Positions 10,663 to 63,705 of a DNA stretch of 64,000 nucleotides are shown in pieces. This stretch comes from Octopus vulgaris (taxonomy: Eukaryota). The stretch spans positions 59,334,001-59,398,000 of the forward strand of contig OX597819.1 of NCBI GenBank assembly GCA_951406725.2, read 5' to 3'. Below the pieces are notes generated by a model. That model made no database searches. It saw only the letters and a program-made list of their open reading frames with translations, and was not told the origin of the DNA. Positions within the stretch are counted from its first letter, which is position 1; each line of letters begins with the position of its first letter. The translations under genes and the position numbers were made by a program.

Positions 10663-11139
10663 CACTTCTTGATATCCTGTTGCTTATTTTCATATATATA
10701 TATATATATATATATTTATAAAAAAAATTATATATATTATATATGTTTAAAGAGTATGATGTAATAGTTCATAATTGTGATATATATTCAATAGAGTCAA
10801 ATATAAAAAATTCATATATAATAAAGAGAGTCCATGCTATATGTTTAAAGAGTATGATGTAGTAGTTCATAATTGTGACATATATTCAACAGAGTCAAAT
10901 ATAAAAAATTCATGTTCTTGAAAAGGCGAGGAGTTCATTTTAGATTTTACCTTGTGTTCCAATGGGAGCAACAGTAATGATTTTTGGTCGGTGTCTGCTC
11001 GCATAATTTTGGTGAATTTTGTGATTGTTGGATTTATATCAGCTCAGCTAAGCTGTGGTCACTTGCACTTTTCACTGACGTCATATAGTTCCAAACCAAT
11101 CAAAACCCAGTCTCAACGAATATAGTGAAAAGACTCCTA

Positions 11140-11418
11140 ACTGTATCCTGTTAGGAAACCAACCAAGCGGAACGACAGTTTGGCCATGGAAGAAATACGT
11201 CATCATTTTTTTGACGAATCGAAATTAGATCTGACCCATGACTGTATCCTGTTAGGTGGCTAGTCCAGCAGAACGAGACATCATCAATGTTTTGACCAAT
11301 CAGAATCGGGTCTGACCCATAGCTGTATCGTGTGGGGAAACCAACCTAGCAGGGTGACAATAGCTTGACCACTGAGGTAATACGTCATCAGTTTTTTGAC
11401 GAATCAGGATTAGATCTG
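11140..11418. repeat. Three imperfect ~80-100-bp tandem units in the PLE 3' UTR
   Basis: Units start CTGTATC(C)TG and end TCATCA..TTTTGAC(G/C)AATC..(A/G)TCTG. Confidence 0.75.
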
Positions 11419-11654
11419 CTTGTAGAGAAAGAGATCTTTTTATAAATTTTTCCTTCCCTAAGACATATCACTGTCAGCGTGAGTGACTGTTTAAGGATCT
11501 GAGAAATTGTAATTCGCCCCACCTCCATTATTATAATTCTCTCACTGTGGCCGTAACAGTGACCACGGTGGTTGTAGTAGTAGTGCGAGTTGGGGCAGTC
11601 GTAGTGGTTGTGGTAGAATTTCGTTTCTCTTTTTCGGAGGACCAATGTTTTGTT

Positions 11655-13003
11655 TTAATATTCCTGGCCCAGGGTGTTCAAACTTGGTCTAAATTTTTTG
11701 ATGAAATAAAGTTCTTTATTTTGGCGTTGCATGAAGGTTACGCTGTCACTGAATTTATAAAGTGGGTAAGTTGTAAATTTCGGATTTACATTTGCAGCTC
11801 ATCTATCTATGTGTCCGCTGACCGGTATTTTCCGGTATTCAGGGTTTCTAATTTGTGATTTATGCACCGCCATCCTGTTACATAAGCTATTTTTTGTATG
11901 GCCTATATACTGCCTATTGCAGCCTGCACATGTTAAGACGTAAATTAAGTTTTCTGATGCGCAGGTGAAGTTTGCTCTAATGGTGAACTGATGGCCTTGT
12001 TCTAGTATAAATTCTGAACCTTCTACCAAGATGACACAGATTCCGCAATTGGGCCTTCCACATTTTCTAACTGCTGGTTTTGTGGTTGATGTTGAGTGCA
12101 GTTTAGCTTGGGTTAAAATCCTTTTCAAGGATTTTGGTTGCCGTTTACTTTTAATGATGGTGTGTGTTTCGAGGATCCGGTTCATCTTTGGGTCTCCCTT
12201 TAGCAGGGCTGTGCTTTGTAGTATGGTGCTGAAGGCCTCATTGTTGAGTGGGTTGTGTGTAGAGATGTAGGGAAGGGTTTTTAATTGTTCTTTCTTTTTT
12301 GGTTTTGTTTGTCTCAGGTCTTCTATACTTAATTTGAGTGCCCTTTGGATTGCACTGTCTATTAGGGGCTGTGGATAGTTTCTATTTGTGAGTGTGGTTC
12401 TAAGTTCCTGGAGACGTGTGTGTCGGGTGTTTGTGTCTGATATTATGGTGCAAATCCTTCTAGCTAAACAAAAGGGACATTTATTCTAGTGTGTCGTGGG
12501 TGGCATGAATCAAAGGGTAGGTACTGTTTGGAGTCTGTCGGTTTATAGTAGATATCTGTCTCTATTTTGTTGCCGGTTTTCTTAATGAGGATGTCTAAAA
12601 ATGGTAATTCTTCTTCGTTATGATCCATCGTGAATTGTATATTATCATTTATTCCATTTAATAGTATTTTAAATTCCTCAAGTTTCTCTATACTTTTATC
12701 CCAGATGATGAAACAGTCACTGAGGTATCTTTTCCAGTTGTTCTGGATATAGGTGGAGAAGGTGTTTCCAAATTTCTCGAGTGTTATCTGGTAGAGTATT
12801 TTCTCAAGGTATCCCATCACTAGGTTGGCAAAAGAGGGTGCAGTACGCGTGCCCATCGCTGTTCCTGATCTTTGTCTGTAGAAATTATTGTCAAAAATAA
12901 AGTAATTGTTTTCTAAAATAAATCTAAGTCCTTCTATTATAAGGTCTTTGTTTATGCGAGTTGGGAGTTCAAAGGAGTAGTTATTCAGCCAGAAGGTGAT
13001 CGC
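11655..13003 (-). pseudogene. Penelope reverse transcriptase + GIY-YIG endonuclease, inactivated
   Basis: FYRQRSGTAMGTRTAPSFANLVMG, WKRYLSDCFIIW (YLDD mutated), LPFLDILI, YYKPTDSKQYL, CGRPNCGIC, NLIYVLTCAGCNRQYIGHT; frameshift near 12470 and stop at 11799. Confidence 0.93.
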
Positions 13004-13894: not shown

Positions 13895-13999
13895 TATATA
13901 TATATATTATCTGTCTGGATATTTTGCATTCTTGTCCCATTTTTGTATTATTTCTATATAATAAGAGACTTTGGTCTCTTATATGTAAGTATATATATC

Positions 14000-14699
14000 T
14001 AAATTTTGTATGACTCTATTATTCTTTCTATTCTTTCATTCTTTCCTTCTTTCTTTCAGCCCTTTCACACTTCGTTCATTCCATTCTTTGTTCTTTCGGT
14101 CCCCCTCTCTCACATTTCCTGGCCTTCTCTTCATGCTCAATTTCACTTCACTGTTTCTCTTTCATTCCTTTCTTGCCCCTCCTTAATTCTTCTATCATTC
14201 TGCCTCTACCTCTCTCTCTCTTCTCTCCCCAAGTGACTGGTATGTGGCCAGGCCTGACCTTTCTTTCTTGGTTCAACTACCATCTGTGCAACATCTATAT
14301 TCCTCCCTGTGCCTGTTAAATCTTATGACTCTGCCATAAGGCTTTACTTCCACACACACCAGCTTAATTTAATTTGTTCTTAGTCGAAAGACACCTGTTG
14401 TTATGTCCTGTTAATTGCATTTGTATTTGTATAACATTCTGTTTTTTCCGTCCTTGTTTACATATACATTCACTGCTTTCTTCCAAGGAATCTAATGCTC
14501 TTAGCTTACTTTTTCCTTGGTGCTGGCCAGATTGGAGCAATCTTGAGTATAACCAGCTGTAATTGCAAAGATAATCTGGAACTCGACTGAGGATAGAAAA
14601 CTCCGAATGACCCATCCTTGTTTTCTTTGTATCGTCTGTCTGGATGCTTTGTTGTCCCTTTTTTGTATCTGGATGTTTTGCTTTCTTGTCCCATTTTTG

Positions 14700-14705
<6 letters not shown>
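14000..14705 (+). mobile_element. Structured dispersed repeat family P2 (probable PLE 3' end)
   Basis: CT-rich tract then a conserved block also at 52490-52810 (-) and, as an inverted pair, at 32845-33140; abuts (TA)n. Confidence 0.65.
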
Positions 14706-14741
<36 letters not shown>

Positions 14742-14830
14742 CGGGAGAATTCACAAAAAAACAAAAGACAAAGACAGGTGGTGTAGACAACAAACAGATG
14801 TATTAGTATAACGCTCGGGAATTGAAAAAG

Positions 14831-14867
14831 TCTTTAACGTTTCGAGCCTACGCTCTACCACAGAAAG
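14831..14867 (-). ncRNA. Minimal HHR variant (CUGUGG core) in a PLE 3'-end fragment (14740-14930)
   Basis: CTTT-CTGTGGT-A-GAGC gtag GCTC-GAAA-CG-TT-AAAG; paralog of 25801-25838. Confidence 0.6.
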
Positions 14868-15506
14868 GAACACAGAAAGAAACATGGAGAGAAAATAAAG
14901 AATGTGTAGTGGCTAGCAATCTATCGCGGCACCTTGGGCAAGTGTCTTCTACTATAGTCTCAGGCCAACCAAAGCCCTGTGAGTTGATTTGGTAGACAGA
15001 AACTGAAAGAAGCCCGTCGTATATATATATATGTTTATATAGATGTACCCATACATACGCATACCTATGTATCTACATCTATACATGTGCATATATATAT
15101 GCATGTGTGCATGTATAAATGTATGTCCACATACATATATTTGTGTACATTTTTTTAGATCGATGAAATCATTTTATTGAATGTAACATATGTGCCTATT
15201 TTTGGGTGCATGTGAAATTGATAAATATTATTTATGATGAAAAATTTCATTTCATTTTCATTAAAATACTGGTGAATTCAGAGCGCACTGCAGTGTTAGC
15301 CACCTCTAAGTGTCACTCACTGCCACTCCATTTGTTGTTTTACTCTGCTTTCCCTAGCATCTTCGAAGCAAAGCCTTTAAATGTTATCCACCTGCTTTAG
15401 CATCTCTCACTGTCACCCACTCCCATTTCGTCTGTTGTTTTACTATTCTTTGCCTCCGGCATGACCGACAGGGACACAGTAAATGTTTTATTATATGTGT
15501 TATATA

Positions 15507-32795: not shown

Positions 32796-32844
<49 letters not shown>

Positions 32845-32850
<6 letters not shown>

Positions 32851-33140
32851 CAAAAATGGGACAAGAACACAAAACATCCAGACAGCTAAGTGATACAAAA
32901 ACGGGACAACAAAACATCCAGACAGACGACACAAAGAAAACAAGGACGGGCCACTTGGAGCCCTTCATCCCCAGTCAAGTTCCAGACTATCTTTGCAACT
33001 TCGGCCGGCTACACTTGAGACCACTTCAAAGATAGTCTGGAACTCGACTGAGAATGGAGGGCTCTGAGTGGCCCATCCTTGTTTTCTTTGTGTTGTCTGT
33101 CTGAATGTTTTGCGTTCTTATCCAATTTTTGTATTTTTTT
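32845..33140. mobile_element. Inverted pair of P2-family 3' ends, A-to-G-rich variant
   Basis: 32845-33025 (-) and 33027-33140 (+) both align to 14535-14705. Confidence 0.85.
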
Positions 33141-34061
33141 ATATATAAAATATAGTAGCATACGTACACTTTGGTCTTTGATATATATATATATAGATAT
33201 AGATAGATAAAACTTACTTGAAAATGGATGCATGGCATTCAATCATATGATAATATAAATAATACATAAATATATACATATATGTACATACCTACATATA
33301 TATATATATGTATATATACATGCATATATGGGTACAGGACATCAAAAAAACGTCCACAAAATGAGAAATGAGAACATAAAAAGCAAAAAACATAAAAAAC
33401 GAACTTTTTTCGAACAACGAAAGAAACAAATACAGAAACAATGTATGTATGTATGTATGTATGTACTTGTGTATCTGTGGTTGTACCCCACCCCTACTAT
33501 CACTTGACACCGATGTTGGTGTGTTTACATCCCTGTAACTTAGCAGATCAGCAAAAAGAGACTGATAGAATAAGTACTAGGCTTACAAAGAATAAGTCCT
33601 GGGGTCAATTTGTTTGACTAAAGGTGGTGCTCCAACATGGCCGCAAAGAACATTCCTTTCATCAGTTGTCCCCTGTTTTATCTACTCTGTGTTTCGAAGG
33701 TAGGGAAAGACGTAACTTTGTTAAAACAGTCCTTCCTGCAAAGCAAATTAAATCAAAAGAATACACACACACACATTCATAATGATGATGCAGGTATGAC
33801 TGCATAGTTGAATAACTTTCTTTACAAGTTTCAGGTTCAATCCCACTGTGCAGCAAGTGTCTTCTACTATATCTCTGGCTCAACAACTGCCTTATTAGTG
33901 AGTTTGGCAGATGGAAACTGTGTGGAAGCAGCCCATTAGGTTTGTGTATGTGAAAAAGAGAGAGAGAGAGAGTCTGTGTCTGTGTACATGCATGTTTTTG
34001 TGTTCATGCACCATAACAATTGACATTTGGTGATGGTTTGTTTATGCCCCCACAACTTAGC

Positions 34062-35259: not shown

Positions 35260-37265
35260 TGCAGTAGTCAGACTTGCCAAGAAAGAATGTCGTAATGCTG
35301 AACAGGAATACAAACTGCATAAATCAGATATAAACAGGAAAAAGTGCAATAAATCATCCAACCACCTCGAGCAGGTGACAAAAAGAGCAGTGCATAGCAA
35401 CCAACCCTGACAGTTAGGTGTTCTGGAAATAAGTACGTTCAAAGTAGAGACCTCACTCTCCAGTTGGTCCTCTTTGCAATCCCCACGCAAGCCAGATTAC
35501 TAATGATCCCAAAGAATGCACAGAACTCATTGCTGATGCTATACAGGTATTTTTACTATCGTAAACCAAAACGCATCATCTCCTCCACCTGACAGCAAAT
35601 TCCATAACAACTATGGAATTTACAACTGCAATGCTGCAACGTCACCTTAAGAATAAGCGTAACTATGCCTCTCCTGGTCTTGATGGTGTCACATACCTGC
35701 TTCTCAAATGTGGTGGGTACTTTCTTCTGCACCAGCTGTCGCTCTTCTTTCAGTTCCGTCTTAACAAGAGTGCAAACCTGGAGCAGTTGAAAACTGCCAG
35801 TGTCATTTCTCTGTTCGAAAAGAGTGACCATACGTCGCCTGTCAACTATCGTCCAGTCAGTCTTACCAGCTGCATTGCCAAACTGATGGAATCCTGTGTC
35901 AGAGAAACACTCTGGAACTTCTGGAATTCTTACTGCCTTATCCAACCCTCACAATTTAGATTTATCCCTAACTCCAGCTGCTGTGATCGACATCACTTGG
36001 GTCAATGATGGCATCTCATGGGTTGATGTTGTTTACCTTGATTTTGCTAAAGCTTTTAATTCTGTGCCACACAAAAGACTTATGGCAAAATTCTCAGCAA
36101 TGGGTGTGAAAGATGATCTTTTTAACTGGTTGGAGTCTTTCATTCTCAGCCAAAAAGAGGCAGTCACAGTTCTAGGACAACATTCTTCACCTTTTGTCAT
36201 CTGGTTCTTGGATCTGTTCTTGGTCCCCTTTTATTTGTTGCATACATTAATGACATAGATGCCAACTCCAAGAATGCCACAGTGCTGAAATAAGCAGATG
36301 ACATCAAGTTGTACCTTGAGATAAAAAGGACAGATCCTGAACACTATAGATCTTTCCTGCAATCGGACCTGGAAACAATGCAACAATGGATCACAGACTG
36401 GCAACTCAAGATGGCTGTGAACAAGTGAACCACCACACATTTTGGGACAAAAAACCCAGCATCCACATACTCTCTCCACAACACTAATATCAAGAAGTCT
36501 TCTTGTGAATGTGACCTAGGTATTACCATCAGCAGCGGTTTGTGCTGGACAAAGCATATCTATAAAATTGTGAAGAAGGTCAAGTGTGTCTTGGCATCAC
36601 TCAGCAAGACCTTTGTCAGTCGTTCTCCAGCTATCTAGATAAGGCTGTATATGGCTATGGTGCAGCCACACTTGAAATTTGCATCACCAGTCTGGAACCC
36701 CTATCTTGCTCAGGACATTGACTTCCTAGAAACTGTTCAGAAACGTGCAACCAAGTGAATACCCTCCATCAAGCATCTACCATACTCTGAACACCTTGCT
36801 TCTCTGGGCAAAGATACATTGAAGCTCCGATGTCTGGCAACTGACTTGGTAAATACCCACAAAATTATTAACCATTGTGCCAGCAACCACCTTGAGCACC
36901 TTTCTGAGCTCCATGTGTCTAACACGTGTGGGCATGCCTACAAAGTTAGAAAACAGCACAGCTCCCATGACTTTCAGAGACATTTTTTCACACTCAGAGT
37001 TGCTGAAGCATGGAACAAACTACCTGCATCAGTTGTTAGTTGCTGAGACATTGCATCTTTTAAAACTTCCATGCTTCCTGAAATTCGCCAACACTACACC
37101 TGATATCCCCCCCACCTCCATACACATACACACATGTATATCATGACTCATACACTGTTCACTTTCCTGACTTTTGTACATAATTCTATGTACTGTACAT
37201 GCACCTTAGATGACTTGTAGTGCACCTGAACGCTATACACAATAATTTCACTATCATTATTATTA
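35260..37265 (+). pseudogene. CR1-clade LINE reverse transcriptase, inactivated, with 3' tail
   Basis: ASPGLDG, PVNYRPVSLTSCIAKLME, VDVVYLDFAKAFNSVPHKRL, GSVLGPLLF, *ADDIKLY, FASPVWNPY, HFFTLRVAEAWNKLP; (ATT)n tail; many stops. Confidence 0.95.
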
Positions 37266-52448: not shown

Positions 52449-52489
<41 letters not shown>

Positions 52490-52490
<1 letters not shown>

Positions 52491-52810
52491 TACAAAAAAA
52501 GGGACAACAAAACATCCAGACAGACAATACAAAGAAAACAAGAACGGGTCATTCGGAGTTTTCTATTCTCAGTTGAGTTCCAGATTATCTTTGCAATTTC
52601 GGCTGGTTATACTTGTGATTGCTCCAATCTGGCCAGCCCCAAGGAAAAACTAACCTAAGAGCATTAGATTGCTTGGAAGAAAGCAGTGAATGTATACAAA
52701 AACAAGGACAGAAAAAACAGAGAAATGGTACAAAATACAAATAACAAGACATTAACAATGGGTGTCTTTCAACTAAGGACGAATTAAATTGAGCTGGCAT
52801 GTGTGGAAGT
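52490..52810 (-). mobile_element. P2-family repeat
   Basis: Reverse complement aligns to 14345-14667. Confidence 0.85.
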
Positions 52811-63446: not shown

Positions 63447-63705
63447 TTGCAGCGTGGAAGGTGTTTGTAAGCCATTTAAGAAACACACAAAAACCGTTAC
63501 ATTCACTTCAACATTTAAATTTAATTTGCCAAAATATTTTCGTCGCTTTCAGACCGCGACCTGTTCACTGACAAAAATATCGTGCTAACAGGTCGCGGTC
63601 TCAAAGCGACGAAAATATTTTCACAAATTAAATTTAAATGTTGAAGTGAATCTAACGGTTTTTGTGTGTTTCTTAAATGGCTTATAAACACCTTCAACGC
63701 TGCAA
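63447..63705. mobile_element. Fold-back element with ~119-bp arms
   Basis: 63447-63565 is the near-perfect reverse complement of 63587-63705; flanked by (TA)n. Confidence 0.92.
63525..63575 (-). ncRNA. Minimal HHR, G3:C8 core variant
   Basis: TTTGTCA-GTGAACA-G-GTCGC ggtctgaaa GCGAC-GAAA-ATAT-TT-TGGCAAA. Confidence 0.72.

Follow-up and report, generated by a model that had tools for sequence, protein, structure and literature searches.

The octopus locus described here is probably a single insertion of a Penelope-like element (PLE), both arms of which would have been copied from one RNA that had been hyper-edited by ADAR. It lies in a window (the whole stretch of DNA that was analysed, 64,000 nucleotides; G000:C6:59334001-59398000) of a genome of 2.8 Gb in 227 contigs, and consists of two facing copies of a repeat family, here called P2, in which A is replaced by G far more often than the background of the family.

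A palindromic insertion with one-directional A>G changes

The locus is a palindrome, made up of a (TA)n stretch, a left arm, an inverted right arm and a short tail. Its features are listed below with those of two A-type P2 copies in the same window; sites 33021 and 33022 of the left arm were placed from the alignment to the family majority together with the window sequence.

32799..32845, no strand: (TA)n target microsatellite at the left end of the locus
32846..33027, minus strand (element sense): left arm, a 5'-truncated P2 copy with 16 A>G changes
33022, 33021, 33012, 33009, 33006, 32999, 32987, 32971, 32966, 32963, 32962, 32961, 32954, 32951, 32930 and 32886, minus strand: A>G sites of the left arm
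32968..33024, minus strand: A>G-altered remnants of hammerhead-like blocks S, G and C in the left arm
33027..33140, plus strand: right arm, a shorter inverted P2 copy head to head with the left arm, with 8 A>G changes
33035, 33056, 33059, 33060, 33061, 33068, 33071 and 33092, plus strand: A>G sites of the right arm, all common to the left arm
33141..33177, plus strand: optional P2 3' tail of 30-40 bases, present in other copies too
13907..14712, plus strand: A-type P2 reference copy, in which a fragment from the 3' end of a preceding unit stands before one unit of ~775 bases
14521..14604, plus strand: hammerhead-like pseudoknotted motif in that copy, with one change in its GAAA and a predicted cut after 14542
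52478..52780, minus strand: second A-type P2 copy
52555-52638, minus strand: hammerhead-like motif in the second A-type copy

Both arms were compared with a majority sequence built from 120 A-class copies, whose positions are cited below as 'ref' positions, and 7 polymorphic columns were excluded from the counts. In the left arm 16 of the 38 A's read G and none of the 65 T's reads C, against a background of 0.019 A>G per A (binomial P = 5.5e-18); the remaining differences outside the excluded columns are 2 G>A, 2 C>T and 4 CpG transitions, with no transversions. All of the A>G changes except that at 32886 fall within 32930-33025. A's that follow G were changed in 2 of 13 cases, as opposed to 14 of 25 for the other A's (P 0.018). 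The right arm has G at 8 of 22 A's, each time at a site also changed in the left arm (P 2.8e-5), and the derived changes common to both arms are A>G only, plus one polymorphic column. Sense-strand G>A clusters of the APOBEC type are absent from the left arm, in which just 2 G>A lie outside CpG. We infer the RNA strand of P2 from its fixed 3' end and the ribozyme-like motif, and on that strand the dense, one-directional A>G without T>C, together with the depletion of 5' G at the changed A's, corresponds to the signature of ADAR.

The first-pass annotation of this DNA had counted 15 A>G changes in 32930-33025, and 15 are indeed found against the copy at 14.5 kb and 16 against that at 52.5 kb (95 aligned bases); its figures of 13 in 15 changed sites with a 5' neighbour other than G, and of 8 changes shared by the opposite arm, were both obtained again, the latter comprising every A>G of the right arm. 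The excess, the strand bias and the neighbour preference that it proposed to look for are all present in the left arm at the values given above. Two details need correction: (i) its 'sense-strand' A-to-G holds for the sense of the element, which in the left arm is the minus strand, with T>C on the plus strand, and (ii) the example string that it attributed to the left arm is right-arm sequence, from 33056 on. A contig from the public run X1 covers 32906-33124 with 0 differences and the A>G run is therefore no assembly slip, with the caveat that X1 may be the assembly's own sample.

P2 as a Penelope-like element

Each P2 unit is rich in pyrimidines, measures ~775 bases and ends at a fixed 3' position. 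The copies are heavily truncated at the 5' end, occur in partial tandems, may carry inverted 5'-truncated arms and an optional tail, and sit at (TA)n targets, an anatomy that matches the one given for Penelope-like elements in PMC8557442. Neither RVT_1 nor GIY-YIG was found in the 50 of 140 long frames scanned at P2 loci, and the one coding PLE family examined has no repeat in common with P2. Because no coding frame or partner was found, P2 is called PLE-like and non-autonomous, its class resting on anatomy. Compared with PLEs and their non-autonomous derivatives, as they appear in PMC8557442, PMC11167929 and bioRxiv 2026.07.22.740005, P2 is alike in (i) 5' truncation, partial tandems and an inverted 5'-truncated copy, (ii) a tail of 30-40 bases and (TA)n targets and (iii) a hammerhead core near the 3' end, and unlike them in that no RT/GIY-YIG frame was found, that its hammerhead is not type I and that its unit measures ~775 bases.

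The tail pattern of P2 has 276 exact matches in the genome, and 90 of the 100 loci listed were taken as an unselected set. An inverted copy occurs within 800 bases at 7 of these 90 loci, and at L048, L071 and L058/L059 the copies abut head to head. L048 is predicted to fold into a long duplex (-158 kcal/mol), and loci with an inverted P2 copy would, through such duplexes, likely be substrates of ADAR.

Other repeats of the window were noted alongside P2. A 5'-truncated copy of a young coding Penelope-like family, with a weak GIY-YIG hit, lies at 11802-12485 on the minus strand (element ~10700-12980); the 150 scored matches of this family are 94-100% identical, many of them within frames of 781 aa. 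As a partner of P2 it was rejected for want of a common repeat, and its A>G counts, affected by poor alignment over a tandem-repeat region, were not used. At 14744-14920 (minus strand) a different (TA)n-flanked repeat has a short hairpin with GAAAC behind it, much as an ordinary hammerhead would look after decay, and related copies flank L014. A near-perfect inverted repeat at 63447-63705, with 119-base arms that are 95% complementary and 21 apart, adjoins (TA)n and is likely another head-to-head insertion, while at 35565-36255 (plus strand) two overlapping frames with weak reverse transcriptase hits belong to a broken retroelement.

Origin of the changes and competing explanations

A is the majority state at every changed site in the unselected P2 set, and it also dominates, for instance at 32930, in contigs from the runs of organisms B and C. 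The left arm has A-type diagnostics and nests among the A copies on a purine-blind tree (G recoded as A; 103 of 175 copies, drawn without support values and without the right arm, which was too short). An ancestral G state or balanced T-to-C change, either of which the first-pass annotation took to speak against its own reading, is thus at odds with the family state and with the 0/65 T>C of the left arm. The two arms share 8/8 A>G, and 8 of 77 sites distinguish them from each other; the A>G changes, on this comparison of sequences, were therefore already there when the arms arose and predate their split. The median P2 copy lies 6.8% from the majority (74 copies); the insertion appears about as old as the spread of the P2 family, roughly 10-20 million years if the calibration in PMC13282606 applies. 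At 33023 the C adjoining a new G has since mutated to T, which at this single site fits CpG decay after the A>G change.

The favoured course of events would begin with a source P2 copy with an inverted arm, transcribed in the germline, whose sense and antisense parts would form a long duplex in which ADAR would convert ~40% of the sense A's to inosine. A Penelope-type reverse transcriptase, supplied in trans, would then prime on both strands of the (TA)n target and read inosine as G, after which the two arms would age independently, the edits having struck the core of the element's predicted ribozyme. According to PMC11167929, a PLE enzyme cuts both strands of the target and extends them from one and the same RNA site, and such a mechanism would account for two arms with a single template. 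A single hairpin transcript of the locus itself was considered as the edited molecule and rejected: both arms are A>G in the element sense, and such a transcript therefore cannot be the molecule that was edited.

Further hyper-A>G insertions occur elsewhere in the genome, at sites that differ in part between loci. Against its own subfamily A', L061 (G000:C2:48922813) has 12 of 41 A's changed to G, none of them after G, and T>C at 0 of 83, one of the 12 being a column that varies between subfamilies. A tandem pair on C22 (L005/L032; G000:C22:40906607 and 40907383) carries 8 and 9 A>G, 8 of them shared, and is edited almost only in ref 182-227. L246 (G000:C20:48379172), with A>G at 8/60 and T>C at 0/130, one site selected and two after G, counts as such an insertion only weakly. 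When three loci are pooled, 3 of 43 A's after G are changed versus 35 of 96 others (P 1.4e-4), a test that includes two L061 sites (201 and 295) later shown to be the A' subfamily state; the overlap of sites between independent events is marginal (P 0.03-0.24). The palindromic locus, L061 and the C22 pair are placed apart on the purine-blind tree, and L061 and the C22 pair are two further independent hyper-A>G insertions of a retroelement-like family.

One alternative, which we regard as improbable though the best of those considered, is that the inserted RNA was unedited and came from an earlier G-rich source copy (itself an editing product) now lost or missed, so that editing seeded a small lineage. 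The shared G's of both arms fit such a source as well as they fit one edited molecule, the C22 pair shares 6 derived changes other than A>G, and the A' G-run after CUGAnGA recurs (L200, L203 and L259). However, the left arm's 21-letter pattern, with one mismatch allowed, finds this locus only, and pattern searches of the genome gave no copy with its set of sites; neither did they give a daughter copy, and the suggestion that the insertion had founded a subfamily is unsupported. The A' G-run is seen in a few copies, partly selected for it. Five A'-type copies (L200, L203, L218, L220 and L259) show G's repeatedly in the unpaired bases that follow CUGAnGA; two of them, L200 and L203, have further changes in common and may form a small lineage, and A' may contain small edited P2 lineages.

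Less probable still is that the A's were deaminated in DNA, be it cDNA, the DNA of a hybrid with RNA or the palindrome in extruded form, or that the reverse transcriptase produced a burst of A>G errors. ADARs can edit DNA in hybrids in vitro, as PMC12925331 has it, and the locus is a long palindrome, but deamination of the first strand would give T>C in the element sense, where there is none; the sense arms lie on opposite DNA strands and yet share 8/8 sites, and L061 and the C22 pair are not palindromes. A polymerase error burst, for its part, should neither leave A's after G untouched nor turn up again in two copied arms. Finally, the idea that the G's go back to a diverged subfamily in which they are ancestral, or are a product of GC-biased conversion or assembly error, is largely refuted and has very little probability left: sister subfamilies B and C do carry G at some of the changed columns, but the diagnostics and the purine-blind position of the left arm are those of A copies, A dominates in the runs of organisms B and C, conversion would yield T>C as well, and the X1 contig reproduces the locus.

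The original proposal that an edited RNA was retrotransposed is supported by A>G changes that are one-directional, strand-specific, 5' G-sparing and recurrent; the founding of a subfamily and an evolutionary drive, which had been attached to it, are not supported. Specifically, the 81 other unselected copies have A>G at 44/2760 and T>C at 90/4254 (P 0.13) and no 5' G effect (P 0.25), and this lack of strand bias and neighbour effect in ordinary copies tells against the claim that editing drove repeat evolution. Differences between B and A were tried as editing scars and set aside, two of the three A/G differences in helices being compensated base pairs; four A/G columns that vary between subfamilies, unpaired or in wobble pairs, are unpolarised.

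A cluster scan of 173 non-redundant sequences (491 kb, of which 113.5 kb informative, 55 kb of that non-P2) returned 9 A>G/T>C clusters, all within P2 and all A>G in the element sense, four of these being B copies scored against the pooled majority, as well as 4 G>A/C>T clusters at threshold. No T>C hypermutant counterpart was found in P2, where 12 copies chosen for one T>C carry at most 3 more, and two T>C outliers with 8 each were discarded, L047 because its flank is misaligned and L083 because the copy is diverged throughout. Hyper-editing is rare among P2 copies, with 1 in 82 A-class copies within the 90 unselected loci, and at this low rate editing looks like a side channel, not a driver. 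Another P2 palindrome, at L048:1449-1725, has in one arm 2 A>G at sites that are also changed in hyper-edited copies.

If the edited-RNA reading is true, hyper-A>G copies would (i) record, with dates, A-to-I editing that took place in the germline millions of years ago, (ii) mark a direct path from RNA editing to heritable DNA change in the lineage with most editing and (iii) make the specificity of ADAR and its pressure on retroelements measurable from the genome alone, like APOBEC fossils in vertebrates. Octopus has the highest hyper-editing count in PMC5625713, with upstream-G depletion, and ADAR-type A>G hypermutation is known in retroviruses (PMC12925331). The P2 locus resembles A>G-hypermutated virus isolates in that near half of the A's became G in a retroelement sequence and in the link to inverted repeats; unlike them, it lies in a chromosome, where a non-viral, non-coding element inserted long ago and has been inherited since. 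APOBEC G>A fossils, described for vertebrate LTR elements in PMC4866542 and PMC2873906, are likewise strand- and context-biased hypermutants fixed in a genome and detected against a family majority. They are G>A changes by DNA deamination, confined to LTR elements and, in PMC4866542, reported absent from 19 invertebrates, whereas the changes in P2 are A>G, were likely made in RNA and concern a PLE-like element of an invertebrate. A literature search, with most subscription papers outside its scope, uncovered no description of retrotransposon copies that were ADAR-edited and inherited. The editing of retrotransposons is the subject of a 2011 paper and a 2015 review, which may touch on inherited edited copies.

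A hammerhead-like motif under the A>G changes

A covarying, multi-pseudoknot hammerhead-like motif in S-G-C order is present in all P2 subfamilies examined; its statistics come from 58 A, B and C copies, a choice among 116 with good coverage. The core is in register, with stem III-AUC/GUC-stem I followed by GAAA-stem III and then by stem I-CUGAnGA. Its U is conserved in 57 and its C in 56 of the 58 copies, the three A's of GAAA in 57 each and the G, a CpG site, in 41, and the n of CUGAnGA takes all four bases (24/14/11/9) between constant neighbours. Across five crossing helices, which were drawn by eye from the same sequences, 92% of cells are paired and 74 double changes, equivalent to about five subfamily-level events, compare with 31 in shuffles (0/500); counts of pairs or of types do not exceed those in shuffles (198/500 and 297/500). 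Column shuffles gave partners for all four main helices in 0 of 2000 cases. Subfamily majorities differ at 16 columns, 12 of which lie in helices with one breaking a pair, and in the C majority one A-C mismatch occurs within the helix that joins stems I and II.

As in type-SGC hammerheads, the blocks run S-G-C with NUH, GAAA and CUGAnGA, and stems I and III covary together with a helix joining stems I and II. The strand directly after CUGAnGA, where that type has stem II, shows only 4-6% pairing; pairing with a strand 5 bases further on reaches 91% of cells in C, 75% in B and 53% in A, and the better partner strand for stem II lies upstream of the site block. PMC10085705, on the type-SGC non-circularly permuted hammerhead HRIMA-1, reports SGC forms from no genome of a known organism. 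P2 agrees with HRIMA-1, as described there, in the order of the site, GAAA and CUGAnGA blocks, the short linker between stems I and II, the helix joining the far ends of these stems and the covariation, and departs from it in a stem II partner upstream of the site block and not right after CUGAnGA, in its animal genome and in that its cleavage is a prediction. As modelled, the motif would work like an SGC hammerhead, although it falls outside that type, and P2 likely has a ribozyme fold.

Searches of P2 against Rfam gave no ribozyme hit at the gathering score and, by E-value, only microsatellite-driven hits, and RNAalifold (which cannot draw pseudoknots) recovered part of one helix and a competing hairpin. 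A type I hammerhead in each tandem unit, which characterizes non-LTR retrozymes, is not seen, the order in P2 being S-G-C. No report of an SGC-order hammerhead in an animal was found in the literature search, again with most subscription papers outside its scope. The 5' ends of P2 copies fall in the 10 bases after the predicted cut in 12 of 53 cases (P 4e-5), 7 of them on TATAA able to match the target. In the left arm GAAA has become GAAG and CUGA has become CUGG, with three G-U pairs in stem III, and this arm is expected to be inactive as a ribozyme; GAAA is GAAG in the C22 copy examined as well, and L061 keeps GAAA.

A more far-reaching reading, offered tentatively and in our estimation rather doubtful, would make P2 an octopus PLE with an active, newly wired non-circularly permuted hammerhead (S-G-C, with stem II separated from CUGAnGA), which no animal genome had shown before, and would have germline ADAR act on P2 RNA as an invertebrate counterpart of APOBEC3, leaving inherited hypermutants in which the ribozyme is often broken. 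Naiad PLEs are described in PMC8557442 as having hammerhead motifs with half cores at unusual distances, and the arrangement seen in P2 may explain such 'half core' motifs.
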